DNA of 64,000 bases from Bdellovibrionota bacterium (GTDB lineage: Bacteria; Bdellovibrionota; UBA1018; CAIPTA01; JAALKR01), in assembly GCA_965207455.1 (NCBI GenBank), contig CBDBMJ010000001.1:1811043-1875042 (forward strand), given 5' to 3'. The number at the start of each line of letters is the position of its first letter. Position 1 is the first letter of the stretch. The translations under genes and the position numbers were made by a program. Under the pieces are notes generated by a model. It had not been told where the DNA came from, did no database searches, and was given only the letters and a program-made list of their open reading frames with translations. Of the stretch, positions 2,911 through 20,888 are shown one piece after another.

Positions 2911-5061
2911 CTACTTCTTCCCACTGATTGCCCTTCGGGCAAGCGGTCTTTCTTTTGCCATATAAAGCGCACTTTGCCAAAGTGCTAGGGCTTTTTGGAT
3001 CATTTCTTTTGCTTTTTTGGGGTAGAGGTGTTTTACGTCTTTATCATAATCTTTCGTTTTATAGCGATACAGGATCGCCAGATTGTCCTCTGGATTAAGA
3101 GCTGCCTCTAAATTATTAACATATTTATTTCTATTCCAATTATTAGTATTAAGCCTAAGCAAAAATTCTTGTCCAATTAATTTCACAAGCATATTTGTAT
3201 GTATAAACATATAATCACTGTCTTTATACGATGAGTGCAAAATATTCCTTCCCAACATGGTGTTTTCTGCAGATATACCCATCATACCAAGCATAATGGG
3301 CATAATATCTATACTGGAAGTTACCTCTTGCACAGTTTTTTGTTTTTTAAACCGGAACTGAGGAGAATAAATAATCAATGGAACCTTTAAAAAAGAAAGG
3401 TTATGATATGTGAACCAATCAGGAACATGCTCGGCTCCTTTCAAACTTATCCCATGATCACCCACTAATACAAAAACTGTTTTATTATAATCCTTTCGCT
3501 TCTTAAAATCTTCAAAAAATACTCGTAGGCTGTAATCAGCAAACCGCAAAGCATTAAGCTCCTCAATGGAAGAAAAGCCATTTTTTTCTAATGTTTTTTT
3601 ATCTACATGAATCGACATAAAGCCTAAATTCTCTTTGGGAATAACATAAGGAGGATGGTGGCTCGCTCCTTCTAAAAAAGTGAGAAATGGTTTGTTTTGA
3701 TTAATTTTTCCTGCTCCATGCTTTTCCTCAATAATACGCTGTACCTCCTTATATAAATGGAAGTCAGAAACCCCCCAAGCATTTACTTCCGGGTATTTAT
3801 AATTTTTTTTTTCAAGCAAGTGGATATTATCTATGTTTTTCACTGTTGTCTTGTAGTCTAACCAAGTGAAATCATGAGATCTAAAAAAATATTTTTCATG
3901 CTTTTTAAGGGAATTTGCTAGGCTTGGCAATGGATAAGAGGGAATTTCAAGAAATGGAATGCTCGCTATTATGGAAAAAACACCATGAATACTAGATGGA
4001 GAGTAAACTGAAGCATGGAAATTTTCAAAAAATATGGCCTCTCTTCTTCGGATAAGTTCCTTCAAAAACGGAGTAGGATTTAGTGGATTTTTCAATGTCT
4101 TATAATCAGAATAAGATTCCAGAAAAATGAATACAATATTGGAATTGGGATCAAGATAAGGCGTCTTTCTTATGGGCCTTTTAAATAAATTGAGTATCTT
4201 TGCTAGATCTACAGACTCACCAGGTTCACCACCCTTTAGTGCTCTAGGATCAGGGGCTTTTAATTTAAGATGACCTTGGACTCCTGCAAATACTTTAAAG
4301 AAGTCACTAGGAAAAAAAGTAGCTTTTTCTTTTATTTTAGTGTCAAGTAAATGTTGAAAAGTATTAAAGCTCATGGGCAAATAAAATGGATCTTGCAATG
4401 AATAACTACGATAAGAATTAAACGGTCGCCTAACATCAATACCAATGACTCCTAAAAATAAAAACTCCAAGCATAATATGGAATAAAGAGCCTTTCGCTT
4501 AGGTAAATAAGAAGTGGTTGTAATCCGATTAAACGACTGAAAACCAAACCTGTCAAATAAACCCTTACCTGTAAATACAAGCCTCTTTAAAATAAAATAT
4601 AAGAAACAGGAAAGGAGCAGCCACCCGAAAACAATCCATACTATAGGATAGGATTTTATCACCATCGATAGAACAGCCAGTGGGCTTTTTAAGATGTAAA
4701 TGCTATCATAACCCAATCTTTTCTCCGTATATCCGTATGTGCCAAAATCAATGAGAAAAAACAAAAATATGAACGAGAAAAGAAAGGTATGAAAAAACAG
4801 AACATTCTTATTGCTATAGATATATTTTTTAGGAAATAAATAATCTCGCCAGAAAAAAGCTAAGCACGGCATGGAAAATAGAAGACTCCAACGCAGATCA
4901 AATCTAGCACCATAGAATAAGCAGTTCAGCAATGCATTCTGATTGCGGAAAAGAGTGCTCAGATCAGCTGAAAAATAAAACAGCATAATAAAGCGAAAAA
5001 CCTGCTGTACAAGAAAAAACAACAAGATAATTTTTATGCAGGAATACAACCTCATGTTCAT
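2911..5061 (-). CDS. LTA synthase family / sulfatase-fold membrane phosphotransferase
   Basis: N-terminal TM helices with GARFDLR; NIVFIFLES, SHHPPY, LRFAD, TVFVLVGDHG, VPLIIYSP and SSIDIMP motifs. Confidence 0.85.
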   Translation of the reverse strand: MNMRLYSCIKIILLFFLVQQVFRFIMLFYFSADLSTLFRNQNALLNCLFYGARFDLRWSLLFSMPCLAFFWRDYLFPKKYIYSNKNVLFFHTFLFSFIFLFFLIDFGTYGYTEKRLGYDSIYILKSPLAVLSMVIKSYPIVWIVFGWLLLSCFLYFILKRLVFTGKGLFDRFGFQSFNRITTTSYLPKRKALYSILCLEFLFLGVIGIDVRRPFNSYRSYSLQDPFYLPMSFNTFQHLLDTKIKEKATFFPSDFFKVFAGVQGHLKLKAPDPRALKGGEPGESVDLAKILNLFKRPIRKTPYLDPNSNIVFIFLESYSDYKTLKNPLNPTPFLKELIRRREAIFFENFHASVYSPSSIHGVFSIIASIPFLEIPSYPLPSLANSLKKHEKYFFRSHDFTWLDYKTTVKNIDNIHLLEKKNYKYPEVNAWGVSDFHLYKEVQRIIEEKHGAGKINQNKPFLTFLEGASHHPPYVIPKENLGFMSIHVDKKTLEKNGFSSIEELNALRFADYSLRVFFEDFKKRKDYNKTVFVLVGDHGISLKGAEHVPDWFTYHNLSFLKVPLIIYSPQFRFKKQKTVQEVTSSIDIMPIMLGMMGISAENTMLGRNILHSSYKDSDYMFIHTNMLVKLIGQEFLLRLNTNNWNRNKYVNNLEAALNPEDNLAILYRYKTKDYDKDVKHLYPKKAKEMIQKALALWQSALYMAKERPLARRAISGKK

Positions 5062-5130
5062 TTTTCCATCATAGCTTATAAAATGATTTTCTCACACTGA
5101 CACCTCTCTGATTAATAAACTCAGACCCAT

Positions 5131-5147
5131 TGTCTAATTTTCAAACA
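5131..5147. repeat. Palindromic motif copy TGTCTAATTTTCAAACA in the divergent sulfatase/pilA intergenic region
   Basis: Resembles TGTCYGA-N3-TCARACA copies at 10804, 13410, 19244 and 20896, with a similar CCCAT left flank. Confidence 0.5.
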
Positions 5148-5352
5148 CCAAAAACTGCCAAAACAATATACAATAAAAAAACAATGTACCGTGTATTATC
5201 TTAATACCCTTTAACGTGAGAAATATTTTATTAAAAAAAGTAAAAAAAACTTTAGTTTTTTATACAAACGTCCGTTTAATCTATATGCAACAAGGTTAAC
5301 TTGTTGTATAATTAAAAGAGTAACAAAAATCAAAAAAGGAGAACTAAAGATT

Positions 5353-5937
5353 ATGAAAATATTGAAAACAAACAAGGGTTTTACCCTAATTGAATTAATG
5401 ATCGTTGTGGCAATTATCGGAATTTTGGCTGCCATTGCGGTACCAAACTTCCAAAGTTATCAAGCGAAAAGTAGACAGTCAGAGGCTAAAATCTCTCTAG
5501 CAACTGTTCATAGCCAAGAGATCGCTTTTAGCGCAGAGTTCGGCGGCTATGTCACTGCACTAGACGCTATTGGTTATATACCAAGCACTTCCGGTGCAGC
5601 TGTTGCAATAGCCAGTACTAGAGGATCGCAGTACTATACCGTTGGTTGGACTGGTGATGCCGCACCTAATTCTATGCCTGCCAATGCTCCATACTCATTC
5701 CTTACAATCCGTTATTGGAGAAACTCAGGGACTAATTCAGGAGATGATGGTGCTACAGGGTGCAAAAATGGTGCTGTTCTTAGCGATGCATTATCGGCAA
5801 TCAACACTGCAAAAGTGAACGGAATAACCCAAGCCTTTACTGTCGGTGCTGCAGGAAAACCCGGAACTAACAATGCTTGCGATGAGTGGACTATAAATGA
5901 AAATAAAGTTCTTGCCAACAACGTACGTAACCTATAA
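5353..5937 (+). CDS. pilA: Type IVa major pilin
   Basis: [26 protein letters not shown] class III signal, then [12 protein letters not shown]-terminal Cys pair; AAGGAG RBS. Confidence 0.95.
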
Positions 5938-6059: not shown

Positions 6060-6767
6060 ATGAAAATCATCAAACACTCAAAAACCTACCGTGTAAACTT
6101 CCTCCTCTTTCTTCTCGCCCTAATCACCGTCAGCCTATACCAAGAACAACGCCCCCACTTTCCCCTAAAAGATAAAACAACCTTTACCTTCAACGAAGGC
6201 TTCCCCTCCTTTTCCCCAGAATCCATACGCCTCTTAAGTTTTGGCTACCGCTTTGTCTGGAGTAGCCTCCTCTGGATCCGCTTCCTCCGCCACACACCTC
6301 CCAAAAGCATGGGATCCGCAGAAGTAAGCTGGATCTTCGTGGACCTAAACGCCATCTCCGTAATCGATCAAGACTTTTCCCCCGTCTATACCCACGGCGC
6401 ACTCTTCCTCTCCGTCATCACCGAAGATAAAAACGGAGCAAGACTCCTCCTAGAAAAAGGATCGAAAAAATACCCCAACTCCCTGCGAATACATTCTGCC
6501 CTAGCCTACCACTACCTCTTTGAACTCAAGGACCGCAAAAAAGCAGCCCAACAATACCAAATAGCCTCCCGGATTCCAGGAGCACCAGACTACTACGCCC
6601 TCCTTGCCGCAACCACCATGCAAAAAGAAGGGAACACAATGGCAGCTATTGCCTTCTTACAAGATATGCGAGAAAATGCAAAAGACCCCAAAGTACGAAA
6701 AAAGCTCCTACAGAAAATACACAACCTAGAAATGGGCTCAACCGAAAGAAGCACCTATGAAAAATAA
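6060..6767 (+). CDS. TPR-like pilus accessory protein (Myxococcus PilG-like)
   Basis: N-terminal TM; SSLLWIR and ARLLLEKGSKKYPNS TPR-like helices; lies between pilA and the ABC genes. Confidence 0.7.
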   Translation: MKIIKHSKTYRVNFLLFLLALITVSLYQEQRPHFPLKDKTTFTFNEGFPSFSPESIRLLSFGYRFVWSSLLWIRFLRHTPPKSMGSAEVSWIFVDLNAISVIDQDFSPVYTHGALFLSVITEDKNGARLLLEKGSKKYPNSLRIHSALAYHYLFELKDRKKAAQQYQIASRIPGAPDYYALLAATTMQKEGNTMAAIAFLQDMRENAKDPKVRKKLLQKIHNLEMGSTERSTYEK

Positions 6768-7677
6768 ACCAGCCCTAGAATTTATCAATGTCTCCAAAAC
6801 ATACCGCTCCGGATTCCTCGGCGAAAAAAAACAATCCCTAAAAAACTTGACCCTCTCCGTACCCACCGGCTCAGTCTTTGGCTTCCTCGGCGCTAACGGC
6901 GCTGGAAAAACAACGACCATAAAAATCACCCTCGGCCTTCAAAAACCCACGTCAGGCGAAGTAATCGTCCTCGGAAAAAGCAACTCTAGCAATAAAGCCA
7001 AAGCCCTTATCGGCTACCTACCCGAACGACCCACCTTTCATCTGGATCTTACTGGCAACGAATTCCTAAACTTCCACCGTAACCTCTTCGGCAACCGCAT
7101 CCAAAATAAACCCCAACTCTCTAACTCCCATCTGCTAGCTCTTGTTGGTATCCCACAAACCGCCTCCACACTCCTGCGAGAATTCTCCAAAGGCATGCTC
7201 CAACGAATCGGCATCGCCCAAGCCCTCATCAATTCTCCGGATTTGGTCATTTTGGACGAACCCATGAGCGGACTCGACCCCATCGGAAGACGCGACGTAC
7301 GCGAAATCATCTCCCAACTCGCACACGAAGGCAAAACCATCTTCTTTAGCAGCCACATCCTAAACGACGTCGAAAGCCTCTGCGACCAAATCGCCTTCCT
7401 CCAATCCGGCGAACTCAAAGTCCACGGAAAAATAAACGACATCCTGAAAAAAAGATCGTCAAAAGAAATCATCTTCAAAAACATCTCAGCCCACACCATT
7501 AAAAACTCCCCCATCCTACAAAACTCCACCCAATCCGGCGACTCCTGGACCCTACTCCTCCACAACCCCGAACACACCCAATCCACCCTCGAAACCATCT
7601 GGCAACAAAAAGGGGAACTCATCTCCGTAACCAACCAACAAATCAGCCTAGAAGAAGAACTCTTCCCATCACTATGA
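6757..7677 (+). CDS. pilH: ABC transporter ATP-binding protein (PilH-like)
   Basis: Walker A GANGAGKTT, signature FSKGMLQR, Walker B VILDEP, H-loop SSH; pil operon context. Confidence 0.85.
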   Translation: MKNKPALEFINVSKTYRSGFLGEKKQSLKNLTLSVPTGSVFGFLGANGAGKTTTIKITLGLQKPTSGEVIVLGKSNSSNKAKALIGYLPERPTFHLDLTGNEFLNFHRNLFGNRIQNKPQLSNSHLLALVGIPQTASTLLREFSKGMLQRIGIAQALINSPDLVILDEPMSGLDPIGRRDVREIISQLAHEGKTIFFSSHILNDVESLCDQIAFLQSGELKVHGKINDILKKRSSKEIIFKNISAHTIKNSPILQNSTQSGDSWTLLLHNPEHTQSTLETIWQQKGELISVTNQQISLEEELFPSL

Positions 7678-8453
7678 AAAAATACCTACAATCCGCTACC
7701 CTAACCATCGCCCTCACCACCCTCAGAGGCTTCACCCGAGACCGCATCTTCTATGCCGTCCTCCTCGTCGCCCTACTCCTCATCGCCTTCTCCTACTCCC
7801 TCGCCGGACTCACCTTCATCGGCTCCTATAAAATACTCATGGACTTCGGCTTCACCGCCATCTCCCTCTGCGGAATCCTCATCTCCATCTTCGTAGGCAT
7901 CATCTCCGTATCCAAAGAAATCGAAAACAAAACCATCTACACCATTCTCGCTAAACCCGTCCACCGCTCCCAATACATTCTGGGCAAATACCTCGGCTGT
8001 AGCCTCGTAGTCCTCATCGCCCACCTAATAATGTCCCTCTCCCTCCTAACCGTCATCTGGATCATCGGCATAAAAACCTCCACCGGCCTCTACCCCTGCT
8101 TCTACCTCATGACACTCGAAAGCCTTCTTATACTCTCCATCGCCCTGTTCTCCTCCATCTTCTCCTCCAGTGTTCTTGCCACCTGCCTCACCCTTTTGTT
8201 ATTCCTTATTGGAAGGAGTGCTTACTTCTTTCATTCTGCCTCAGAAAAAGCTGAAGGACTCATGCGCTATGTTTTTCGGATTCTCTACGACATTCTCCCT
8301 AACCTCGAACGCTTTAATCTCCGAGAAATGGCTGCCTACTCCAAGCCCTACCCCGACACCCTTCTCCTCGACAGCACCATCTACGCCCTCGCCTACACCA
8401 CCCTCTTTCTCACCCTAAGCACCATTCTTTTCATCCGACGGGACATGCCATGA
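7674..8453 (+). CDS. pilI: ABC-2 type permease (PilI-like)
   Basis: Multiple TM helices; KEIENKTIYTILAKPVHRSQYILGKYLG motif; ATGA overlaps with both neighbours. Confidence 0.85.
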   Translation: MKKYLQSATLTIALTTLRGFTRDRIFYAVLLVALLLIAFSYSLAGLTFIGSYKILMDFGFTAISLCGILISIFVGIISVSKEIENKTIYTILAKPVHRSQYILGKYLGCSLVVLIAHLIMSLSLLTVIWIIGIKTSTGLYPCFYLMTLESLLILSIALFSSIFSSSVLATCLTLLLFLIGRSAYFFHSASEKAEGLMRYVFRILYDILPNLERFNLREMAAYSKPYPDTLLLDSTIYALAYTTLFLTLSTILFIRRDMP

Positions 8454-9241
8454 TCGACCCCCAAACCATCATCCAAATCGCCTTCATCACCTTTGGTTTC
8501 ATCATCGGCAGCTTCCTCAACGTCTGCATCTCCCGCATGCCCAAAGAAAAAAGCGTGGTCTTCCCCCCCAGCGCCTGCATGACTTGCCAAAAAAACATCC
8601 CTTGGTACTGCAACATCCCCATTCTCAGCTACCTCTTCCTCCGCGGCCGCTGCCTCTACTGCAAATCCCGCATCCCCTTCCGCTACCTGCTAGTCGAATG
8701 CATCACCCCCGCCCTATTCCTCCTCTGCCTGCCCTACCCCTATATCCTCTGGCCCTTTTACGTTTACTTTCTCTCCTCCCTCGTCATTGCCACCTTTATC
8801 GACCTCGAACACTGGATCATCCCCGACAAGATCACCCTCCCAGGTATCCCCATAGGAATCCTAAGCTCCCTCGTCCACCCCTACCCTTTTATTTTGGATT
8901 CTGTGCTTGGCATGATATTTGGTGGCGGATCTCTCCTAGTCATTGGCATGATCTACGAGAAGATGAAAAAAACAGAGGGCATTGGTGGTGGCGACATAAA
9001 ATTTCTCGCCATGGGCGGCGCCTTCCTCGGCTTCAAAGGCATCATCCTCACGCTTCTTATTGCTTCCATCACTGGCATGATTATTGGACTCATCACCATG
9101 ATCAAAACAGGAAAAGGCGGCAAAACTGCCATCCCCTTCGGTCCCTTCCTCTCCGCTGGAATGCTCATCACCTTTATCTGGGGCACCCAAATCTGGGACT
9201 GGTACCTCGCCCTCACCAACCCTCAATCCCTCTTCCAATAA
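8450..9241 (+). CDS. pilD: Prepilin peptidase / N-methyltransferase, copy 1
   Basis: GSFLNV, two CxxC pairs, IDLEH and GGGDIK catalytic Asp motifs, IPFGPFL. Confidence 0.95.
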   Translation: MIDPQTIIQIAFITFGFIIGSFLNVCISRMPKEKSVVFPPSACMTCQKNIPWYCNIPILSYLFLRGRCLYCKSRIPFRYLLVECITPALFLLCLPYPYILWPFYVYFLSSLVIATFIDLEHWIIPDKITLPGIPIGILSSLVHPYPFILDSVLGMIFGGGSLLVIGMIYEKMKKTEGIGGGDIKFLAMGGAFLGFKGIILTLLIASITGMIIGLITMIKTGKGGKTAIPFGPFLSAGMLITFIWGTQIWDWYLALTNPQSLFQ

Positions 9242-9294
9242 CACACCCAACAAACCCACGGCGCAATGCCGCACGCAACAAGCTGGACACGTCA

Positions 9295-10731
9295 TTAAAA
9301 TTTTCTAGAAAATTTCCTAAACGATTTAACCAGCTCATAAGTAAGAAACGCGTTTGCTACTATCTGCAAAAAATTCCAGAAACCAAACTCACCTACAGGC
9401 AATTTAATGGGAATCACTAAACGACCAAACAGGTCAAGACAATCCCAAAAACCAACACAACACTCAAAACGAAACATATGGATAAAAAGAAATACAATAT
9501 TAATAGCTAATTGCCAAACAAAAACCCTAAAAAAAGCTGTACCAAAATAACTAAAGAGCTTCTCAATAGATAAAGTAAATTTATCCTGAAGATTGCCACC
9601 CGTCTTCCCCAGTTCATGGAGATATTTATCATGCTCTTTCGTATGAAACATCACGGCAGATATCGTATCATTTTGTTTTATGGCGAAGTGCTTTAATTGC
9701 AAGAAAGTTTCTCTGCTAAATGCATTCTCGCCTTCAATATTTATTAATCCTCTTTTTTCGTTTATATATTTAAGTGTGTTTTCTTCATCAAGAGATTCAT
9801 TCCCTCCAGTAGAAAAATCCGTTCCTTCGATAACGCAATTATCTATCTGAAGTACAAATTCTTTAGTAAAAAAAATATCTCCTAAAAAAATATTTTTTAT
9901 ATTTCCCGACAACTTAAAATGACTCCTAAAAAAAGAAAGGGTGAAATCCAATCGCTCACGAAACTCACTCATTGTAGTGTCTAATTTATTAAAAATACAT
10001 TCCCTGAAATTACAAGACCCGAGGAATTGCGTATTAAAAAATCTTGCATCATCTCGAAAATAAGATTTATAAAATCCAGCATTTTCTGCAAATCTTGTTC
10101 TCTCAAAAGAAACTTTCGATAAAAATATAGTCTCAACAAAATCTACTTCTTTTTCAAACTCTACCTTTTTAAAAAAAGAATCTCCTGTAATAATAGTATT
10201 ACTAACGCTCACTGGTTTCAGAAATTTTTTATCAGACAAATAAATGCCACCTATAATAATGAAATTATCAAAACATACCTTTCTTGAAATTTTCGCACTA
10301 TCCAATATAATATCTCCCACAATAATGCAATTATCTAAAGGCACATCCATTGAAATAAGTTCTTCAACATCAGACTGTCCTATATGAACGAATTTTTTCT
10401 TAGAATCTAGCTCTTCTTCCATGATAATAAATATTTTTTCAGAAAGGATTCCTTTATAATTAAAAATTTCTTTTATATGTGCGCTTATTTCAATCACCTC
10501 ATATTCAACACCATTAAAAACTACTTCTTGCGAGTTCAAGGAAGGATCGGAATACTTGTTTTTACTCTCATCTTCATAACGAAACTCTAACTTACCACTC
10601 GATTTATCAAAAGTAACATTGGTTAATCCCTCTCTATCAACCTTTGATATTCCGTATTTTACCTCGCTCGTTTCTTGTTCCATAAAATATATCTTACAAA
10701 ATACTATTGTAAAAAACAATTCTTTATTCAT
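9295..10731 (-). CDS. Pentapeptide-repeat protein with C-terminal TM region
   Basis: Periodic F-xx-x-F repeats (FKKVEFEKEVDFVETIFLSKVSFERTRF...); hydrophobic C-terminus; start may be MEQET at 10683. Confidence 0.75.
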   Translation of the reverse strand: MNKELFFTIVFCKIYFMEQETSEVKYGISKVDREGLTNVTFDKSSGKLEFRYEDESKNKYSDPSLNSQEVVFNGVEYEVIEISAHIKEIFNYKGILSEKIFIIMEEELDSKKKFVHIGQSDVEELISMDVPLDNCIIVGDIILDSAKISRKVCFDNFIIIGGIYLSDKKFLKPVSVSNTIITGDSFFKKVEFEKEVDFVETIFLSKVSFERTRFAENAGFYKSYFRDDARFFNTQFLGSCNFRECIFNKLDTTMSEFRERLDFTLSFFRSHFKLSGNIKNIFLGDIFFTKEFVLQIDNCVIEGTDFSTGGNESLDEENTLKYINEKRGLINIEGENAFSRETFLQLKHFAIKQNDTISAVMFHTKEHDKYLHELGKTGGNLQDKFTLSIEKLFSYFGTAFFRVFVWQLAINIVFLFIHMFRFECCVGFWDCLDLFGRLVIPIKLPVGEFGFWNFLQIVANAFLTYELVKSFRKFSRKF

Positions 10732-10796
10732 CTATCACCTTAAAAAAAGAGTAAGTGTTTCTCACAAAGAAACCATTAAGTTCTTGGAAAACTAAA

Positions 10797-10985
10797 TATC
10801 TATTGTCCGATTATCAGACATCGCACCAACAGGAACACGCCCCAGAGCAGACCTCATAATCCCTCCAGCAACAAAGCCTACCTCTATTCACACCTCTCAC
10901 AACACACAGACAAACCTCGGAACTCTTCTTGACTAACCCATGGCTTTGGTTTATGTTAAAACATAATCAATCGGCTAATTAACAG
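10797..10985 (+). repeat. Repeated ~190-bp element A (palindrome, C/A-rich spacer, sigma70 promoter)
   Basis: Alignable by eye along its length with 20889-21078; partial copies at 13410 and 19244. Confidence 0.8.
10929..10957 (+). promoter_or_regulatory. Sigma70-type promoter
   Basis: TTGACT-N17-TATGTT; TTGACT is also kept in the second copy at 21021. Confidence 0.65.
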
Positions 10986-11010
10986 AAGGCGTAAGAGAGG
11001 GAACTGAAGA

Positions 11011-11181
11011 ATGAGAAAAAAAAATAACAGCGCAACGAAAAAAGAAGACCCTGAAGAAGTTCAGAGAAGCCTTGAACAGCTCATTATTGACATAAAAAAG
11101 AAGCGACCCAAGTTCCGAAAATTCTCAAAAGAGCAGCGAGAATTCTTTATAAGGGAAGCACTAGAAGAGTATGATTCGTAG
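11011..11181 (+). CDS. 56-aa small protein not in the ORF track; RHH/CopG-like C-terminal helix
   Basis: MRKKNNSATKKEDPEEVQRSLEQLIIDIKKKRPKFRKFSKEQREFFIREALEEYDS; GAGG RBS; homologous relic at 19132-19236. Confidence 0.65.
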   Translation: MRKKNNSATKKEDPEEVQRSLEQLIIDIKKKRPKFRKFSKEQREFFIREALEEYDS

Positions 11182-11189
11182 TACCCATT

Positions 11190-12059
11190 GTGTTAGCAAG
11201 TAAATTAAAAAGAAATAAGAAATACAGTCTTTCTCAAGGAATGATCTTTGAGATACCCAGTTTAAAACTTGATTTTGATAAAGCAAAAAAAACCATTAAA
11301 GAGCTTTATCCCGAGGCAAGTCTTGATAATGTAAAGTATGGACTCATATTAACACAATCATGTGACCTCGTTCATGATAAGTTTTTTGAGCAACAAGGTG
11401 GAACTCTAGATAAAGATGAAAAAAATAACTACAAATATCGACTTCCAAAAATTCCTCACATTACATTTTGCTTGTTGGAGCCAATAAATTCTTATATTTC
11501 AGAATTTTTAAGTAAAAACGAATCAAAATTTCTATTCAAAATAGAAGACCCTGTTCCCACTAACAAAACCACTAATGTCCTTTCCTCGAGCAAAGCATTA
11601 AAACTAGTTTTGAGAGAATTTGGCAGGTTCTTTCAAAATAATCACCCTTGGGCATTTTTCATCACAATTCAATCAAAGGATAGAAAAGAATACTACTTTG
11701 TTAACTTAACAAAAATTCTCCCTCTAAGAATAATTCACTATAGCTCAATCCTCCAGAACTCTAAATTTCAGTTAACAAATGAATTTTCTAATAAATTAGC
11801 ATGGAAATTGGCGACCCTATATGGGAGAATCGGGACTAAGGATTATTCAAGAAAAGCAATCACAGAAATCATCAAGGATATTCTTGAAATCTCCCAAAAA
11901 GAGTTTTCTAGCTTAACCGATGATTCTATAGACATAGAACCTTTAGACTTTGATGCTCTTAAAAAAAATCTAGAAAGAGAACGTAACTTAAAAAAAAGAA
12001 ATGAAATCTTACAAGATCTGCTAGAGGAACACTCCATAACAAATATGAAAGGCATATAA
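11190..12059 (+). CDS. Hypothetical protein with LTQSCDL motif (289 aa)
   Basis: LSQGMIF...GLILTQSCDL...LATLYGRIG pattern; AT-rich. Confidence 0.7.
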   Translation: MLASKLKRNKKYSLSQGMIFEIPSLKLDFDKAKKTIKELYPEASLDNVKYGLILTQSCDLVHDKFFEQQGGTLDKDEKNNYKYRLPKIPHITFCLLEPINSYISEFLSKNESKFLFKIEDPVPTNKTTNVLSSSKALKLVLREFGRFFQNNHPWAFFITIQSKDRKEYYFVNLTKILPLRIIHYSSILQNSKFQLTNEFSNKLAWKLATLYGRIGTKDYSRKAITEIIKDILEISQKEFSSLTDDSIDIEPLDFDALKKNLERERNLKKRNEILQDLLEEHSITNMKGI

Positions 12060-12092
12060 GACCGAAGAACTCATACACTACATTTTTCGGCT

Positions 12093-12606
12093 CATCTACA
12101 CCATTCTCGCCAAACCCGTCCACCGCTCCCAATACATTCTGGGCAAATACCTCGGCTGTAGCCTCGTTGTCCTCATCGCTCACCTAATAATGTCCCTCTC
12201 CCTCCTAACCGTCATCTGGATCATCGGCATAAAAACCTCCACCGGCCTCTACCCCTGCTTCTACCTCATGACACTCGAAAGCCTTCTTATACTCTCCATT
12301 GCCCTGTTCTCCTCTATCTTTTCCTCCAGCGTCCTCGCCACTTGCCTCACCCTTCTACTATTCCTCATCGGAAGAAGCGCCTACTTCTTTCACTCCGCCT
12401 CTGAAAAAGCCGAAGGATTCATGCGCTATGTTTTTCGGATTCTCTACGACATTCTCCCTAACCTCGAACGCTTTAATCTCCGAGAAATGGCGGCCAAACC
12501 CTACCCCGACACCCTTCTCCTCGACAGCACCATCTACGCCCTCGCCTACACCACCCTCTTTCTCACCCTAAGCACCATTCTTTTCATCCGACGGGACATG
12601 CCATGA
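12093..12606 (+). pseudogene. pilI: 5'-truncated copy of the pilI permease
   Basis: Lacks the first ~260 bp of 7674-8453; MAAYSKPY becomes MAAKPY. Confidence 0.85.
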
Positions 12607-13394
12607 TCGACCCCCAAACCATCATCCAAATCGCCTTCATCACCTTTGGTTTCATCATCGGCAGCTTCCTCAACGTCTGCATCTCCCGCATGCCCAAAGA
12701 AAAAAGCGTGGTCTTCCCCCCCAGCGCCTGCATGACTTGCCAAAAAAACATCCCTTGGTACTGCAACATCCCCATTCTCAGCTACCTCTTCCTCCGCGGC
12801 CGCTGCCTCTACTGCAAATCCCGCATCCCCTTCCGCTACCTGCTAGTCGAATGCATCACCCCCGCCCTATTCCTCCTCTGCCTGCCCTACCCCTATATCC
12901 TCTGGCCCTTTTACGTTTACTTTCTCTCCTCCCTCGTCATTGCCACCTTTATCGACCTCGAACACTGGATCATCCCCGACAAGATCACCCTCCCAGGTAT
13001 CCCCATAGGAATCCTAAGCTCCCTCGTCCACCCCTACCCTTTTATTTTGGATTCTGTGCTTGGCATGATATTTGGTGGCGGATCTCTCCTAGTCATTGGC
13101 ATGATCTACGAGAAGATGAAAAAAACAGAGGGCATTGGTGGTGGCGACATAAAATTTCTTGCCATGGGCGGCGCCTTCCTCGGCTTCAAAGGCATCATCC
13201 TCACGCTTCTTATTGCTTCCATCACTGGCATGATTATTGGGCTCATCACCATGGTCAAAACAGGAAAAGGTGCCAAGACTGCCATCCCCTTCGGTCCCTT
13301 CCTCTCCGCTGGAATGCTCATCACCTTTATCTGGGGCACCCAAATCTGGGACTGGTACCTTGCCCTCACCAACCCTCAATCCCTCTTCCAATAA
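12603..13394 (+). CDS. pilD: Prepilin peptidase, copy 2 (intact)
   Basis: 263 aa; differs from copy 1 at two residues (MIKTGKGG vs MVKTGKGA). Confidence 0.93.
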   Translation: MIDPQTIIQIAFITFGFIIGSFLNVCISRMPKEKSVVFPPSACMTCQKNIPWYCNIPILSYLFLRGRCLYCKSRIPFRYLLVECITPALFLLCLPYPYILWPFYVYFLSSLVIATFIDLEHWIIPDKITLPGIPIGILSSLVHPYPFILDSVLGMIFGGGSLLVIGMIYEKMKKTEGIGGGDIKFLAMGGAFLGFKGIILTLLIASITGMIIGLITMVKTGKGAKTAIPFGPFLSAGMLITFIWGTQIWDWYLALTNPQSLFQ

Positions 13395-13606
13395 CACTCA
13401 AAACACCCTTGTCCGATTTTCAAACATCGCACTAACAAACACCCCTCCCAAAGCAAACCTCACAATATTCACACAGCTCAACACAGCAGGTACCAATATT
13501 GCTAGCAGCACGTCTCCTTATATTTTGATATAATTTCATTATGCCGTGGTCATCCGTAAAACAATTTGCTATAAACGTTTTAGTGTATAAATTTACAGGA
13601 TAAACA

Positions 13607-14389
13607 ATGCAAAGCAAACTGGTAAAAAAATGTAAAAACTCAAACCTAATTGAGGCATCGCTGACTCTTCTTGGAGAACCCAAAAAATACCAAAAAGATT
13701 CCCACCTTGGATTCAGGGAACATATTAAAAAATACCTGAGAGAGGAAAATAACTTATCCAACTTAAAATCAGAACGCATCAATAGTGCTCGCCTAACCAG
13801 AGAAGACGAAAACGGAATGGTCCTACCCTATTTAGACAGGCAGTTTACTATAAAAGAGAAAAACAAAACTTACCGAACAGGCCACCAAATCGCAGGATTC
13901 CATACAACTCACGAAGGCGATAATAACCGATACACAACTTATGACAGTGAAATCGCCCCGTATATAGAAAGTTTTATAGAAAAAATAAACGAATTCAACA
14001 ACCGATTTAATGTTATAGAAATGGTTTTCTGCTATGTAAATAATTTTCTATTCCCTCGGAATGGCTTTATGCTGGACAAATATTTTGACCTTGCCATTAG
14101 AACAGGGATCGGCTCACAACATGGAGTCCAAGAGACCTTGTTCTCTTTTTTATATCCTCTGGATGGAAACACCGTGAAAATATCACTCCGCGGATACCCC
14201 CATGATAAGGATCAAATTCGTATCGTAGTTGAAACAACTGGTATAAAAAAGATTGAACCCACATCCATTTCCGATTACAGGAAAATAATGGAGGAATCTA
14301 AAATCCTAAAGGATATAACAAAAGCTCAATTTTTCAACCTTACCAGCGACGAAACAAAACATAAAATACTAGGAGCAAAATATGAGTAA
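13607..14389 (+). CDS. TIGR04255-like protein
   Basis: LIEASLTL near the N-terminus, central CYVNNF (RYIN-like), C-terminal FFNLTSDE; family call from recalled pattern. Confidence 0.5.
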   Translation: MQSKLVKKCKNSNLIEASLTLLGEPKKYQKDSHLGFREHIKKYLREENNLSNLKSERINSARLTREDENGMVLPYLDRQFTIKEKNKTYRTGHQIAGFHTTHEGDNNRYTTYDSEIAPYIESFIEKINEFNNRFNVIEMVFCYVNNFLFPRNGFMLDKYFDLAIRTGIGSQHGVQETLFSFLYPLDGNTVKISLRGYPHDKDQIRIVVETTGIKKIEPTSISDYRKIMEESKILKDITKAQFFNLTSDETKHKILGAKYE

Positions 14390-14879
14390 TCCCATCACAG
14401 CCGAACCAATGCTCCTTCCAAAAACAATTCATAGTGATGCGAAAGGCAACATTAAAGACGACAGCTACTTCTATAGCGAAGCAGACCTCCCCACCCTTCT
14501 CTCTCAACCACTACAGGAGCAAAATTCTCTTTCTGAATCTCCCGAAGCAATTAAAAAATCTGTACGGGATTTTTCTTTTGACACAGAAAAAAACAATCCT
14601 GTAACCATCACATCTTCCGTAGTTGGAAAATGGAATAATTACGAAGAACTCTCTGATTTATTGGCAGGGATTAATTATAATGAATTTTGCAAGCGAGCCA
14701 CTACCAGTGAAATGTACTGGAAACCAATCATTGAAGAACGCCTGGAAGAACTGTATCCAGAAAATATGTCTGAAGAATTAAAGAAACTAAAAAGTATAAA
14801 TAGAGCAACACGAGATATATTAGAGAAAATCAAAAAAGGAACCAAGAGAAATTTTTTTAGAAAAATTTTTCGCAAATAG
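14382..14879 (+). CDS. Hypothetical protein (165 aa)
   Basis: Overlaps the upstream gene; GGAG RBS; operon-like spacing. Confidence 0.65.
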   Translation: MSNPITAEPMLLPKTIHSDAKGNIKDDSYFYSEADLPTLLSQPLQEQNSLSESPEAIKKSVRDFSFDTEKNNPVTITSSVVGKWNNYEELSDLLAGINYNEFCKRATTSEMYWKPIIEERLEELYPENMSEELKKLKSINRATRDILEKIKKGTKRNFFRKIFRK

Positions 14880-14894
14880 AGACTACTGAAGTAA

Positions 14895-15581
14895 ATGGCA
14901 ACGTTAAACTGTGGAGAAAATAAGTCTCCAGCATCTCATTACAGAAATCACATATCAGATTTAAATATTCTTTTCTTCAAAAAATTTTGCGCATACTGCT
15001 GGACAGCCGATAAGGCAGAAACTATTGATCACTATAAGCCAAGGAAACATTTTCCCAATCTTAAAACTGAATTCAGAAATTTACTTCTTGTCTGTGCCAC
15101 GTGCAATTCAAAAAAAGGAGATTATCACCCCGAAGCAAAAAACAGAAAAATATATAAGGACGAAACGCATTACATATTCAATTGTCGCGAGCATGATATA
15201 GGAGAATTTATAAAAGTAAGCAACGATGGGAAGATCTCATCCAAGAAAAATTTACGGAAAGAACGAGAACAAGTTGCTTTTTTTATTCGGATATTTAATC
15301 TAGAAAAAACAGAAACGAAAAGTACAAGAAAGGAACACATAGAAATATTAGAAGCAACAAAAGAAGCGATGCAGTTGTTAAAAAATAGAGCTCGCTGTGA
15401 GAATAAGGCAAGCCTTGAACGGATTTTAGATACAAATATTGGGCTTATTGCTACCAGATTTTTATTCTTTCACCTTTTAAATTTAAAAATACCAAGCGAG
15501 TTAAAGGAAAGAATAGAAAAAAAGAGAAGAGAACTTCTATGCGCACAAAGACTAAACCCAATTATCTCAAAATTGATTTAG
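14895..15581 (+). CDS. HNH endonuclease
   Basis: CAYC...TIDHYKP...NLLLVCATCNSKKG Zn-finger HNH motif. Confidence 0.88.
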   Translation: MATLNCGENKSPASHYRNHISDLNILFFKKFCAYCWTADKAETIDHYKPRKHFPNLKTEFRNLLLVCATCNSKKGDYHPEAKNRKIYKDETHYIFNCREHDIGEFIKVSNDGKISSKKNLRKEREQVAFFIRIFNLEKTETKSTRKEHIEILEATKEAMQLLKNRARCENKASLERILDTNIGLIATRFLFFHLLNLKIPSELKERIEKKRRELLCAQRLNPIISKLI

Positions 15582-15693
15582 AAACTATTTGCAAGCTTAT
15601 CGATGTTGTTGTAATATCAAAGAAGGCTGGATGAAATGCAAACATTATTTTAAACTAGGAATAAACCCTAATTACTTCGGAGGAACGCGATGA
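15575..15693 (+). pseudogene. Relic 3' end of the proteasome-beta-like gene
   Basis: DLETICKLIDVVVISKKAG...KHYFK...NPNYFGG matches the end of 19371-20588. Confidence 0.8.
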
Positions 15694-15887
15694 CTGAAAC
15701 TAAAAAGACAGAAGAAAAGATACACAGACCATCCAAGGAGCATACCGTTGTAGATGATTCTGAGATAACTTTTGAAAAAGACCCCTACAAATACGGACAG
15801 AAAATAGGAAGAATAGCAGTGAGGGAAGCCTATATAAAAACTTTGAGAAAATTTCGTGATGCTAAAAAACTTCAAGCAAAGTCATAA
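15690..15887 (+). CDS. Small protein, paralogue of 20585-20824
   Basis: FEKDPYKYGQKIG vs FHDDPYEYGRQMA; same TTCGGAGGAA RBS context. Confidence 0.7.
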   Translation: MTETKKTEEKIHRPSKEHTVVDDSEITFEKDPYKYGQKIGRIAVREAYIKTLRKFRDAKKLQAKS

Positions 15888-15926
15888 GATGCACTCTCAC
15901 CAAACCTTAAACATGTGTAAATAATT

Positions 15927-16511
15927 ATGCTAAGATTCCCCTGGAAAAAAACCACCATGTTCTCCAAAGATCATTCGTCGAAACACCTCGACGAGATCCA
16001 ACTCCGCAACCGAAAAAACATCCTGAAAGTCGCAGCCATCCTCAGCCTCCTCCTACTCCTCTACCCCGTAATAAAAGAAAAAAGCTACCTCTTCTCCATC
16101 CAAAACCAAGCCCGCACCCTAACCAAAGAAATCCTAAACGCCAGACTCCAAGCCACCAAAACCCGCAACCCAACTTCCCTCACACTCCTCAACCCACAAA
16201 CATGGCAATACAACGAATTCCCACAAAAACACGACTGCGACGGAACACCCAACCCCAACACAAAAAAAAACCTCCCCTTCCCCGACTTCCAATGGCGCGC
16301 CCTCCTCCTCAAATCCAATAACCCCACCGGCATCGGCTCAGACATCCAACAACTCTGCTTCCACCCCATCCACGGCATCACCCTCAACAACCAAAATCTC
16401 TCCTCCCACCAACTCTTCCTACTCGTCTCACCACAAGAAAACACCAAACGACAAAACATCCAACAAATCATCCTCTCCAACTCCGGCATCCAAATCCAAC
16501 CCCTCCAATAA
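15927..16511 (+). CDS. Pseudopilin/FimT-like protein without a canonical prepilin cleavage site
   Basis: One TM helix then ARTLTKEILNARLQA and LCFHPIHG, FimT/GspH-like; same C/A-rich codon use as the pil genes. Confidence 0.5.
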   Translation: MLRFPWKKTTMFSKDHSSKHLDEIQLRNRKNILKVAAILSLLLLLYPVIKEKSYLFSIQNQARTLTKEILNARLQATKTRNPTSLTLLNPQTWQYNEFPQKHDCDGTPNPNTKKNLPFPDFQWRALLLKSNNPTGIGSDIQQLCFHPIHGITLNNQNLSSHQLFLLVSPQENTKRQNIQQIILSNSGIQIQPLQ

Positions 16512-16521
16512 AATAAGTATT

Positions 16522-16578
16522 TCACTGGACCTAAAAACTGTTGGCAAATCTGCTAATATTGCTGTAATATCAAAGAAA
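16522..16578 (+). pseudogene. Second relic of the proteasome-beta-like gene 3' region
   Basis: Translates SLDLKTVGKSANIAVISKK vs SPNLETICEPIDVAVISKK at 20454-20510. Confidence 0.65.
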
Positions 16579-16588
16579 AAGGAACTTA

Positions 16589-17647
16589 ATGGAATTAGAA
16601 AAACATAAGCATCTCAAAAAAAATAATATGCCAATCTCATATTTTGAAAATTATGAGATAAAAGAAATTAATATCAGCAACCTGAAATTCTTGCTAAAAA
16701 GAAGACCTCTAACATTCAAAATTCTTATACCCAAAAATAAAACCAGCCACAGAAAACGTACACTGCAAACAATATTTCAAGAAATAAATTATATGATTGA
16801 AGAAATCGCTGACAATACTATAATTGGTGTCCGTAAAGATATTTTTTTATTGGACTTTAACATAAAAAAATGCCTGCAGCAATATCAGATATACATGAAC
16901 TATCAGTTATAATTGGAATTTCTGAGGAACTCGACTGCTCTCAAACAGCAGAAAAAAAGTTCAAAACCCTCCAAGCATACACGCAGCGCTATGGCTTAAA
17001 TAAAATTAACATTTCAGAAAGCAACTTTCTAAAAAAAATATCGATTTTTAATAGAGGAGTGAATTTAGGTATTCAAATTAAAAGGAAACTGCGGCTTCAA
17101 GGGAAAGACCTAGAATGGTCCGGACTCACAAACCACAAGAAAGATAGCTCCGATATTTATTGCAATGGCCACGGAATATCTCTTAAAGACACAAGTAAAA
17201 TTATTTAACATAAGAAAAAAAATAGTCAAGGAAGTTTCTGATAAAGTCTTAGCTATCTTGAAAGAAGGACTGCTTCAAGATCCAGAACATTTCTCCCATA
17301 AAATGAAAATTATACTTCAATATGGAAATGTTAAAAAATTCTTTGGGTTCAGCAGTTCAGCAATGACTTATGTGGGATGTATAAATAAAGAAAATGATAT
17401 TCATATATCTCCTTTGAACGTATCCTCTGAGAAATCTAAACTAACTCCCACAACTGTTGGGCTGCAAATAAATTTCTACACAACAATGGATATTTCTCTT
17501 CCTTTATCTCAAATAACTATAAAAATTCAAAATCAATTGCGCTACAAGCACCGTACTTTCAGCTGCGCCCCAGAGGCAAACTTTCATTTACTAAGTTACG
17601 GCGATTGGAAGAAAATTTATCCAACTCAGGAATGTCTTGAACGATAA
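16589..17647 (+). pseudogene. Probable fragmented restriction endonuclease (three overlapping ORFs)
   Basis: ORFs 16589-16912, 16870-17208 and 17165-17647 in shifting frames; SSDI...ISLK PD-(D/E)xK-like; convergent with a C5 MTase. Confidence 0.5.
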
Positions 17648-18942
17648 AAAAGCTTAGGCCAAAGGAATTCTATTCTTTTTGCAATATGATATGCCAGCAG
17701 CGGAGGAACTGCATTTCCTATAAGCTTATATGCTTCTGATGTGCTCACTCCATTATCTCCTAAAAAGGAAAAATTATCTGGAAATGTTTGAATTCTTGCA
17801 CACTCCCTAATAGTAAGCCTACGTTCTATTAAATTCATTTTAAGGTCATTCTTACACAAGCCACCATGTTCAGACAATAGCCGTCGGAATTCTATATTCC
17901 CATGGTGCTCTGCTCGAATAGTTGGGCCAATCGTGTCGAGATTAATCTCTCTATTGCCCTGACAGTGTTTCCCATACCATTTTGCCCTTGAGTATGCTTT
18001 TTGATTAATATCACTTGTCTGATCTGGCTCTTTCAAATCTTTAAATATTGTCCTAAGAGGTACAAAGGTTTTTAAATTTTGCAAATTAATTTTCCCCGTA
18101 GCATGTGTTTTTTTCGGCAGTGGTGAATAATTTTCAGGAATTATATCTTTAGATAGCTCCTTCATAGCTTGTGGTCGCAATGAATCTTTTCTAAACCCAA
18201 TAAAGAAAACTCGCTCTCTTGACTGAGGCACACCATATTCTGCCGAGTTCAGCAATTTTCCATCAATAACAATATACCCACCATCTCCAATATTTTTAAA
18301 ATCTTCTTGTATTATTTCTTTTACATCATGTAATGAAATCAATCCCTTAACATTCTCTGCAATAAAAATCTTGGGCTGGACAATATCAATCACCTCTCTC
18401 ATCCAAGTGTAAAGCATCCCTCGATTATCTTCATTTACATGTTTTAAATCACTGCCTTTATGACTCTTATGAGATGAAAATCCCTTTCTTTTCCCTGCAA
18501 GGGAAAAATCTTGACAAGGAAAACCACCTGTAAGTACATCCACATTATTGGGAAATAGATTTTTCTCTCCATCCCAATGCCTTTTCACCCTGTCAACAAT
18601 ACTTTCCAAATGAAAGGAGCCAACCTCATAATGCTGATTGAAGAAATTAGACCAGACCTTCCGAGCCCCTAGCCTGATATCATTGGCAAAAATTGTTTTA
18701 AATCTTGTTGGCTGAAGCCTAACTTGTGATTTTTTTGTTCTTTCCTGCACCCATTGAGCATGGATATTTTCATTTATACATGCTCGATGTACCTCAAATC
18801 CACCCTCAAACCCCAAGTCCATACCTCCACAACCACTGAAGAGACTTAAAACGTTTAAATCTTTTTCATATTTTTTTTTATTATATTCCTGACCGGATTT
18901 TCTCATCCGCAAATCATCTGATATCTTTTGAGCTTTCATCAT
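17626..18942 (-). CDS. dcm: DNA (cytosine-5) methyltransferase
   Basis: LFSGCGG, GFPCQDFS, ENVKG, PQSRERVF, RECARIQTFPD and IGNAVPP motifs. Confidence 0.95.
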   Translation of the reverse strand: MMKAQKISDDLRMRKSGQEYNKKKYEKDLNVLSLFSGCGGMDLGFEGGFEVHRACINENIHAQWVQERTKKSQVRLQPTRFKTIFANDIRLGARKVWSNFFNQHYEVGSFHLESIVDRVKRHWDGEKNLFPNNVDVLTGGFPCQDFSLAGKRKGFSSHKSHKGSDLKHVNEDNRGMLYTWMREVIDIVQPKIFIAENVKGLISLHDVKEIIQEDFKNIGDGGYIVIDGKLLNSAEYGVPQSRERVFFIGFRKDSLRPQAMKELSKDIIPENYSPLPKKTHATGKINLQNLKTFVPLRTIFKDLKEPDQTSDINQKAYSRAKWYGKHCQGNREINLDTIGPTIRAEHHGNIEFRRLLSEHGGLCKNDLKMNLIERRLTIRECARIQTFPDNFSFLGDNGVSTSEAYKLIGNAVPPLLAYHIAKRIEFLWPKLFYRSRHS

Positions 18943-19131
18943 TATAACCTATCTCTATTCCTCCACTATTACAATAATCGCTATCTTCATAACGTTCACT
19001 TAAACTAAATATCTCTCAACCAAGAAAATGCGATGCAAAACCTCCTCCTGAAAAAACCTAACCTCTCCAATAAATGCTCCTCCCATCGCCACGCATCTGA
19101 TGCACAGATCTTTCCGACTCGATGCGCTGAT

Positions 19132-19236
19132 CAACTCATTATTGATATAAAAAAGAAGCAGCCCAAGTTCCAAGAATTTTCAAAGGAATAGAAAGATTTC
19201 TTTATAGAGAAAATACTAGAAGAATATAATTCGTAG
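19132..19236 (+). pseudogene. Relic of the 56-aa small gene
   Basis: QLIIDIKKKQPKFQEFSKE*KDFFIEKILEEYNS*; internal TAG where the intact copy has CAG. Confidence 0.75.
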
Positions 19237-19290
19237 TATCTACTGTCTGATTATCAGACATCACACCAACAAAAACACTCCCCCCAGAGA
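19237..19290 (+). repeat. Partial element A with perfect palindrome TGTCTGA-TTA-TCAGACA (19244-19260)
   Basis: Direct match to 10797-10850. Confidence 0.8.
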
Positions 19291-19370
19291 ACATCTTCCG
19301 CTATCTCCAACGGCTCAAAAATTGCTTCTATAAAGTTCCAGTCAACAAATTTCATAAGAGAGGATTTTAA

Positions 19371-20588
19371 ATGACCGCAGAAGTTTCCATAATGAATAGG
19401 TCAGCAGTAGCCCTAGCCGCCGACAGTGCCATTACCACTATAGACAATAAGGTACATAAAACGGGAAGCAAGCTGTTTGCAGTAAATCATGGAATGCCCA
19501 TTGGAATTATGTTTTACGGAAGCACCACTTTACTCGGTATACCTCTAGAAACAGCTCTATCCTCATTTAGAAAACATATAGATAAAAGAAAATTTAAAAC
19601 AGTAAAAGAATGTGGAAAATCATTTATCAATTTTTTAAGTAGCAATGAAATCCTGTATCCTACTGACGTACAGAAAAAATATTATTTAGATTATCTAAAT
19701 CTTTCTATAAGAAAGCATCTAGATAATATGAATAAAGAAATTATCAGAAATATGTTTCAGGAGGAATTTAAAAAATGGAATAACGCACCCTATGTTGATG
19801 GAATGGTAGAGAACGATAAGGATAAATTACTCATAAAATATGAGATTGATTTTAGCCATATTATCGATAAGGCTTTTAAAAATCACTCTCTGAATGGCAT
19901 GCCCAAAACCGATTTATATAATTTATGCGCAAACTACGCCTGCAAAGCGATTCTCTCTGACGAATATAAAAGTGGCGTAGTGTTCTGTGGGTTTGGCGAG
20001 GAAGAAAACTACCCCAGTCTTTATGCCGTAGAGTTAGAATTAATTGTTCAAAATAAACTGAAATTTATTGTTTCCCATCAATTCAAAACTACAGATTCCG
20101 ACCCAGCTTCAATACATCCATTTGCACAGAGAGAAGCGATAATATCATTCCTCCGAGGAATTGATCCTAAGTTCTTAAATTGCATTCATGGGTATATGAT
20201 AAATATTTTTGGGACGATCGATAGTTCAATAAAAAATGAGTTTCCTGATCAAATTGACGTACAAAAAAAGCTGATGCTTTTGATTGAGCATTTAAAGCAA
20301 AAGTCTATTTCTAACATATTCAAAGAATTAGGCGCAGTAAGTGAGAAAGACTTTATCAATCCCACGATAAACGCCACAGAAACTCTATCTAAAGATGACC
20401 TAGCTCATATGGCTGAAACATTAGTGAGCCTAGCTTCTTTCAGGCAAAAAATGTCGCCGAACTTAGAAACTATTTGCGAACCTATTGATGTTGCTGTAAT
20501 ATCAAAGAAAGATGGATTTATCTGGATTAAACGAAAACATTATTTCAAGCCAGAAATGAATCCCAGTTACTTCGGAGGAATACAATGA
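19371..20588 (+). CDS. Proteasome beta-subunit/HslV-like Ntn hydrolase with large insertion (405 aa)
   Basis: After Met removal: Thr1, Asp17 (AADS), Lys33 (SKLF); C-terminal PIDVAVISK; GAGG RBS. Confidence 0.75.
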   Translation: MTAEVSIMNRSAVALAADSAITTIDNKVHKTGSKLFAVNHGMPIGIMFYGSTTLLGIPLETALSSFRKHIDKRKFKTVKECGKSFINFLSSNEILYPTDVQKKYYLDYLNLSIRKHLDNMNKEIIRNMFQEEFKKWNNAPYVDGMVENDKDKLLIKYEIDFSHIIDKAFKNHSLNGMPKTDLYNLCANYACKAILSDEYKSGVVFCGFGEEENYPSLYAVELELIVQNKLKFIVSHQFKTTDSDPASIHPFAQREAIISFLRGIDPKFLNCIHGYMINIFGTIDSSIKNEFPDQIDVQKKLMLLIEHLKQKSISNIFKELGAVSEKDFINPTINATETLSKDDLAHMAETLVSLASFRQKMSPNLETICEPIDVAVISKKDGFIWIKRKHYFKPEMNPSYFGGIQ

Positions 20589-20824: not shown

Positions 20825-20888
20825 AATAACTAAAAAGAAAAGGGGCGAAGGTATAATGCTAGAAACAAATACTTCTATTAAAACCAGG

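Follow-up and report, generated by a model that had tools for sequence, protein, structure and literature searches.

Organisation of the locus

The pil operon of a Bdellovibrionota bacterium (assembly GCA_965207455.1, source genome G000) was analysed in a window of 64,000 nt, which is the whole stretch of contig C1 under study and is numbered from its first nucleotide as position 1. Part of the operon is present twice. The direct repeat of 1319 bp occupies 7934-9252 and 12093-13405 with 96.9% identity, and its copies enclose two cargo genes. The features are summarized in Table 1. The names pilG, pilH and pilI for the genes after pilA are those of the Myxococcus operon, which we take to apply here.

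An AT-rich island about 70 kb long (1.747-1.816 Mb of C1) has the pil operon as its right edge. Of 50 proteins from the island and its edges that were scanned with PADLOC, 24 gave matches. The dense defence content comprises CBASS with two cyclase-like genes, two ShosA (DprA-like) genes, ShosTA, Avs2, PDC-M68, PDC-S06, PDC-S39, PD-T7-4, a ThsB-like TIR gene and AbiEi, and the island further holds genes of IS21 and IS66. The flank is conserved beside variable content: its gene order is kept in G001, the nearest genome, and a public sequencing run (X1) contains divergent sulfatase alleles and alternative cargo joints.

Table 1. Features of the duplicated pil locus and its surroundings in the window. 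Paired values are C3/(C3+T3) and A3/(A3+G3).
Feature	Position	Strand	Remarks
Repeat copy 1	7934-9252	+	3' two-thirds of ABC-2 permease gene (pilI-like) and prepilin peptidase gene (pilD); alignment, Pfam
Repeat copy 2	12093-13405	+	pilI truncated 5' and intact pilD (12603-13394); chimera of population alleles; alignment, run X1 contigs
Tract 1, T/G allele	8169-8252	+	Alignment; run X1 contig at 33x, 1 difference
Tract 1, C/A allele	12328-12411	+	Alignment; run X1 contig at 16.3x, same 20 differences over 8141-8259
6 bp of copy 1, absent from copy 2	8335-8340	+	Gap also in divergent pilI fragment of run X1
661 bp without difference between copies	8346-9006	+	Includes first 557 bp of pilD
Tract 2	9088-9124 (copy 2: 13241-13277)	+	5 differences; copy 2 has T/G alleles at 4
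Decayed or divergent pilI fragment	12061-12100	+	Matches 8250-8288 with 10 differences
8-bp microhomology	12093-12100	+	Shared with 7934-7941; here copy 2 passes from the fragment to a point in pilI about 350 bp upstream of register
pilG-like gene	6060-6767	+	0.81/0.91
ABC ATPase gene (pilH-like)	6757-7677	+	Pfam; 0.85/0.89; T/G islands 7036-7053, 7120-7149, 7231-7254, the last two C/A in a run X1 contig
ABC-2 permease gene (pilI-like)	7674-8453	+	Pfam; 0.83/0.85; T/G island 8169-8300
pilD	8450-9241	+	Pfam; 0.81/0.76; T/G islands 8885-8989, 9050-9085
Conserved gene, directly after pilD in relatives	15927-16511	+	0.96/0.94; most skewed open reading frame of the genome
pilA (N-methyl motif)	5353-5937	+	0.37/0.75; ordinary codon use; edge of variable region
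Sulfatase-family membrane protein gene, unskewed	2911-5061	-	Alleles about 81% identical in run X1
Cargo: pentapeptide-repeat protein gene, AT-rich	9295-10731	-	Between copies; junction to pilD in run X1 (9215-10837, 0 differences, 7.6x)
Cargo: AT-rich gene	11190-12059	+	Between copies; no Pfam or PADLOC match
C/A-rich non-coding linker	10790-10930	+	Related to those at about 13410, 19240 and 20880; GC skew -0.42 to -0.58
Final two ~70-bp repeat copies of the upstream island	297-492	-	

Differences between the two copies

The exact alignment of the copies was compared with the first-pass annotation of the same DNA. In tract 1 it agreed with the 16 differences recorded there, all 16 synonymous; relative to copy 1, copy 2 carries 12 T>C, 2 G>A, 1 C>T and 1 A>T, and the transitions are one-way in 14 of 15 (p=0.001). 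The start of pilD, described as undiffering for about 550 bp, lies inside the longest identical block, and T/G-rich islands such as 8885-8989 are indeed common to both copies. For tract 2 the reported C/A alleles of copy 1 at four of the five sites were recovered, but two of the five differences are non-synonymous (I/V and G/A). The substitutions are strongly clustered, since none of 200,000 permutations of the 32 substitutions over third positions reached 16 in 84 bp or a gap of 662 bp. The proposed directional bias of the copies holds for runs (runs test of polarity across the duplication, p=0.007) and fails as a net bias, the whole duplication having 16 transitions in one direction vs 12 in the other (p=0.57). 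Outside 8169-8252, 11 of the 13 transitions run the opposite way, with T/G in copy 2 (p=0.02).

The position of the tract-1 changes within codons bears on their age. T>C or G>A differences were found at 14 of 16 synonymous sites vs none of 30 non-synonymous sites (p=5e-10; 1e-5 for the reverse direction). Changes confined to silent sites need long filtering by selection, and tract 1 therefore represents two old alleles; a one-off mutational shower is excluded for this tract.

Population alleles in a public run

Run X1, which contains 0.69 of the sampled words, was used to follow these alleles. Over 8090-8420 it gave eight contigs, among them two alternative contigs of 179 nt, one with the copy-1 allele and the other with the copy-2 allele and exactly its differences (Table 1). 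Both join a single contig that covers 8260-8370 without the 6-bp gap (48x). The summed depth over pilI/pilD is about 49-61x, vs 51-61x in the adjoining unique contigs; contig depth being only a rough guide, this suggests that pilI/pilD is mostly single-copy in the run and that the variants are alleles. The first-pass annotation had named short conversions with divergent alleles as one source of the tracts, and the two tract-1 versions as alternative paths support it. The annotation had also set a match to alleles of a co-assembled strain against its directional view; such a match exists in part, as both tract-1 versions are present in the run.

Another X1 contig (7043-7963, 24 differences, of which 19 were listed) has C/A at two T/G islands of the window (7131-7146 and 7233-7252) and includes G>C changes and a non-synonymous change. 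A two-state model gave seven T/G islands covering 9% of codons, and at least three of the seven have a C/A counterpart in X1 among the differences listed. As to whether these islands are ordinary or actively G/T-enriched, the best shift was -0.4, and values from -1.5 to 0 fitted about equally. The tracts are recombined population alleles, forming an ordinary mosaic. The 661 identical bp between the copies are compatible with gene conversion or with recent shared ancestry of the strain alleles. Against the window, run X2 gave only short low-depth pieces and run X3 one unrelated piece; a metagenome scan with PilI returned four loci at 27-29% identity and no close relative.

Strand skew at both edges of the island

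The open reading frames of the genome (1991, from a simple caller) were ranked by their use of C/A-ending codons. Ranks 1-7 were taken by five pil-operon genes and the two duplicated parts, with a C3 share of 0.80-0.96 vs a mean of 0.36, while pilA and the cargo are ordinary. Against a background so strongly C/A, any block of ordinary sequence looks polarised. The left edge of the island showed a mirror skew: genes on the minus strand hold ranks 8, 18, 22, 37 and 81 and a plus-strand gene lying among them stands at 1980, so that the rule follows the genome strand and not the coding strand. It is the strand with its 3' end directed into the island that is G/T-rich; the non-coding linkers are also skewed. 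In G001 the same gene order is found without cargo or skew, and the left-edge orthologues are unskewed. The pilD skew, with both shares high, was seen in none of the 19 relatives' genes examined (19 of 40 genomes searched). The mirror-image hyper-skew is real and local. The directional C/A pressure that the first-pass annotation had proposed for the locus is thus borne out by the extreme one-strand skew, by its mirror at the other island edge and by the decayed pilI fragment described below.

The composition of the skew was resolved by site class. At two-fold sites the log odds ratios relative to lagging-strand core genes are 1.85 (C/T) and 2.04 (A/G), about 3 times the lagging-leading difference (0.58). 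At four-fold sites the value for C over A is 1.22 (0.98-1.47), vs about 0.75-0.8 from scaling the replication bias (0.23). The C/T shift is 1.7-2.1 at all four 3' neighbours, the 3' neighbour being the only context covered. Paralog pairs of the island have a raised whole-pair keto/amino imbalance (29.9 on 13 degrees of freedom, p=0.005). The 140 paralog pairs that lie elsewhere in the genome show a slight excess of neighbouring transitions with shared keto/amino polarity (0.523 vs 0.502 when shuffled; 1 of 500 shuffles). The AT/GC axis lacks such an excess, and codon effects may contribute to the keto/amino one.

Three general causes were rejected. Translational selection fails because codon use is ordinary in pilA and in two ribosomal-protein genes, the skew extends to non-coding DNA and the left-edge plus-strand gene is opposite. 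Transcription-linked deamination fails on the same grounds and has the wrong direction. GC-biased conversion fails because G falls while C rises; the equal T>C and G>A shifts show that G+C content is not what is favoured.

Origin of copy 2

The decayed pilI fragment sits right after the second cargo gene. Its transitions, 5 G>A and 3 T>C, are all eight toward C/A, and the G>A ones are non-synonymous, so the pressure is not confined to silent sites; G001 retains R where the fragment has H. In G000 the sequence jumps from the fragment into pilI at the 8-bp microhomology and, after the jump at 7934, it follows the C/A allele, keeps the gap and continues through pilD. In run X1, a 21.9x contig continues the fragment in register, from 12100 to 8295, with the 6-bp gap, and a 21x path departs from pilI at 8384. 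From these paths we infer that copy 2 was made by at least two inter-strain recombination events, one of them with an illegitimate joint. DNA from another strain would have joined the pilI fragment left behind the cargo gene; the result would be a partial diploid in which the two copies are alleles of two strains. The genome has ComEC and DprA genes; the two extra DprA-like genes of the island match the ShosA defence model and were not counted as recombination factors.

Neighbouring genes and repeats

The sulfatase gene and pilA (2911-5937) look replaced as a unit, and an X1 contig skips the variable half of pilA. To the right of pilD, a second family of C/A-rich linkers (10768-10985, 13410-13510, 19237-19330, 20861-21078) precedes the plus-strand cargo genes, and joints among C/A-rich linkers in X1 (11204 to 20552, 20588 to 11000, 13470 to 19309) place the cassettes in other orders. 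The 3' end of the gene at 19371-20588 and its short downstream open reading frame, together 20463-20790, are repeated in decayed form at 15578-15890, immediately ahead of the gene at 15927; this repeat is another scar of cassette turnover. At 26080-26270 a short open reading frame with tandem repeats of the R-R-D-P-Q-D type runs into 27-bp repeats, followed by a methyltransferase gene.

A non-coding repeat of about 70 bp gave 19 co-oriented nhmmer matches, all in the island (C1 1,746,922-1,811,534) and mostly a short way beyond the ends of cargo genes on the minus strand. Its motif had no exact match in the genome contig collection, and Rfam gave no match in 139,700 bases. The island also contains a second recent duplication (486 bp, 97%; C1 1,796,064-1,796,547 and 1,810,976-1,811,460), which holds adjacent strongly C/A-rich and G/T-rich non-coding patches.

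Cause of the tracts and of the skew

The explanation that we consider somewhat probable is that the tracts are pilI/pilD population variants shuffled by homologous recombination, that their differences are one-directional because one strand of the pil genes is extremely skewed to C/A, and that this skew itself comes from repeated strand-biased recombination at the island edges. The pil operon would serve as anchor for the exchanges, and invasion would mostly be by the strand with its 3' end directed into the island. Mismatches of the G.T type would be tolerated or left unrepaired in the hybrid and those of the A.C type rejected; over many rounds the invading strand would gain G and T and its partner C and A, while selection would purge amino-acid changes. 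The T/G islands would then be ordinary or opposite-polarity blocks that came in or are not yet replaced. G-containing mismatches are the best tolerated, and the C excess at four-fold sites fits this. An invading strand directed toward the island, together with tolerance of G-containing mismatches, would account for the signs seen, for transition shifts of equal size and for the excess of C. Donor markers that lie 5' of a heterology were recovered about 4-fold more often in pneumococcus (PMC4824099, citing Pasta and Sicard), and this bias, as related there, has the polarity that the mechanism needs. A further claim would be that hot-spot recombination has its own strand-specific base bias, unlike GC-biased conversion, in which the invading strand keeps G.T and rejects A.C and so rewrites the anchors into mirror C/A and G/T ramps in whole tracts; this claim is tentative and rather doubtful.

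Several points weigh against strand-biased recombination as the explanation. The genome encodes MutS and MutL, and repair of G.T mismatches is normally efficient. The gene at 15927 is purely C/A despite cargo on both sides, and the conserved 5' part of pilA is unskewed. Within the genome the effect is seen at the pil/island locus only; the island paralog pairs lie only marginally above the 140 outside pairs (F p=0.053) and show no significant concordance of adjacent sites (46 of 500 shuffles). The evidence from X1 consists of contigs, whose depth is not a copy number, and the exact copy-2 arrangement was not seen in that run. The family comprises only G000 and G001, and G001 as outgroup has 48-58% protein identity and saturated synonymous sites, so no event is polarised by a close outgroup. 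Transformation in B. subtilis is non-polar, according to the same source on pneumococcus (PMC4824099).

Two other causes of the skew were weighed. The tracts may be recombined alleles and the skew mutational, with breaks in the island resected and the exposed 3' single-stranded tails deaminated (C>T and A>G) singly over many cycles. This would produce the polarity seen, in which the strand with its 3' end toward the island is G/T-rich, and the island is nuclease-rich; the equal T>C and G>A shifts without sequence context agree with it, as do the eight of eight transitions toward C/A of the decayed pilI fragment, non-synonymous ones included, and the R of G001 vs the H of that fragment. Such deamination is nevertheless unlikely, because the four-fold C excess over A goes beyond transitions alone, two uracil-DNA glycosylases are present and the skew does not fall steadily with distance, the pil-operon gene farthest from the island being the most skewed. 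A local amplification of the replication strand bias, with forks that converge or stall at the island as a second terminus-like zone and leave lagging-strand templates single-stranded, is given a small probability. The replichore polarity does switch across the island, weakly plus-leading to the left and minus-leading to the right, and the direction of the skew on each side agrees with the local replichore. However, the main terminus-like switch at about 0.73 Mb has no such skew, the effect is 3 times the genome lagging-leading difference and limited to a few kb, and its spectrum is not a simple multiple of the replication bias. A scan for dif sites gave degenerate matches only. Over 1.54-1.75 Mb of C1 the replichore polarity is reversed relative to both neighbours (dnaA lies on C3), which suggests an inversion with one end at the island.

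As regards the copies themselves, the first-pass annotation had considered tract-wise mutagenesis, that is, an internal duplication followed by mutagenesis of 50-100-bp patches in single events, by a deaminase, an error-prone polymerase acting in fill-in or cDNA patching. The strong clustering, the runs of polarity and the clustered G>A of the decayed fragment speak for it. This proposal is already largely refuted and retains a very slight probability: silent sites are saturated and non-synonymous ones spared in tract 1, with the significance given above in either direction, the same haplotypes exist in X1, and the changes show no 3'-neighbour preference. The enzyme search suggested by the annotation gave no match to the reverse transcriptase profile RVT_1 (controls positive in 3 of 14) or to the Y-family polymerase profile (IMS) in this genome, which is 94.7% complete, and found only two PF00383 deaminases, both far from the pil locus. 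Copy 2 could instead be an assembly chimera of co-occurring strain haplotypes, whichever explanation of the skew applies. A population does contain both alleles side by side, and the cargo end in X1 runs into the short pilI fragment, not into the extended copy. The likelihood of a chimera is slim, as the assembly consists of three contigs, a jump at an 8-bp microhomology would be unlike the usual product of overlap assembly, and the pilD-to-cargo junction occurs in X1 with 0 differences; an X1 contig also stops at 7963, as it would if a path joined at 7934, though a nearby single-nucleotide polymorphism would have the same effect.

Comparison with known systems

The repeat was compared with GRINS, which PMC8256042 describes as near-identical coding repeats with C+A vs G+T recoding strongest at third positions, abrupt patches and a link to gene conversion; in that description their cause is unexplained, and single-copy skewed regions are also mentioned. 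The pil repeat is like them, as so described, in being a long near-identical coding repeat with third-position C+A vs G+T recoding in abrupt patches. The formal definition was applied in skew windows of 150 nt at a step of 30, with a cut-off of 0.15 for the mean absolute skew. The duplicated length of 1319 bp exceeds 500 bp, the identity of 96.9% exceeds 80%, and the mean absolute GC skew (0.399 and 0.404) lies above the cut-off; the mean absolute TA skew (0.141 and 0.138) lies narrowly below it. The single-copy neighbours exceed the TA skew cut-off (0.23, 0.25, 0.39) but are no repeats. The positive correlation of GC and TA skew that is typical of GRINS, and stands outside the formal definition, was absent (r = -0.27 and -0.29). 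With three of the four formal properties the repeat is GRINS-like and not GRINS. It also differs in that most skewed DNA here is single-copy, in that the repeat consists of two strain alleles and not of paralogous modules, and in that the skew is mirror-symmetric about a variable island, a feature outside GRINS as PMC8256042 presents them.

The borders of replacement flexible genomic islands have peaks of synonymous polymorphism that are attributed to recombination with divergent relatives, in the account of PMC4033161. The pil locus resembles those borders, so characterised, in having conserved genes beside a variable surface/defence region, and its dense, mostly synonymous tracts may correspond to such a peak. 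At the pil locus the differences have a direction and are mirrored between two flanks, and the island gains cassettes by addition as well; skew goes unmentioned in the main text of PMC4033161 where these borders are treated. A literature search, with supplements and most subscription literature outside its scope, found no paper on mirror skew at bacterial island flanks.

The structure of copy 2 recalls homology-facilitated illegitimate recombination, where the joint has a microhomology of 3-10 nt: one joint lies at a short microhomology, here an 8-bp word, beside a homologous anchor. It is also like transformation-made merodiploids, being a partial duplication in a genome with ComEC and DprA. 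The pneumococcal merodiploid duplications reported in PMC3784515 are 100-900 kb long and bounded by insertion-sequence repeats, unlike, on that report, the 1319-bp repeat found here. A diversity-generating retroelement does not fit, as no reverse transcriptase was found by the search above and the changes are T/C and G/A transitions both ways, not adenine-specific. Kataegis-like deaminase showers are likewise unlike the locus, with 0 of 30 non-synonymous tract-1 sites changed and no 3'-neighbour preference.

One strand of the vertebrate mitochondrial genome has C far above T and A far above G, the pattern that C>T and A>G changes on an exposed strand would leave. The one-strand C/A excess is shared with the pil locus, which differs in covering a few kb of a bacterial chromosome, in having C well above A at four-fold sites and in lacking an enzyme motif. 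If the strand-specific recombination bias proposed above is true, it would explain GRINS, the position and direction of exchange would be readable from one genome, skew could mark exchange hot spots, and the pil locus, where both alleles still segregate, would be a natural instance of it. The locus presents a mitochondria-like one-strand skew confined to both edges of a chromosomal defence hot spot, and in such a mirror-symmetric case, in single-copy core genes with segregating alleles, biased heteroduplex acceptance, deamination of single-stranded DNA and fork stalling become separable.

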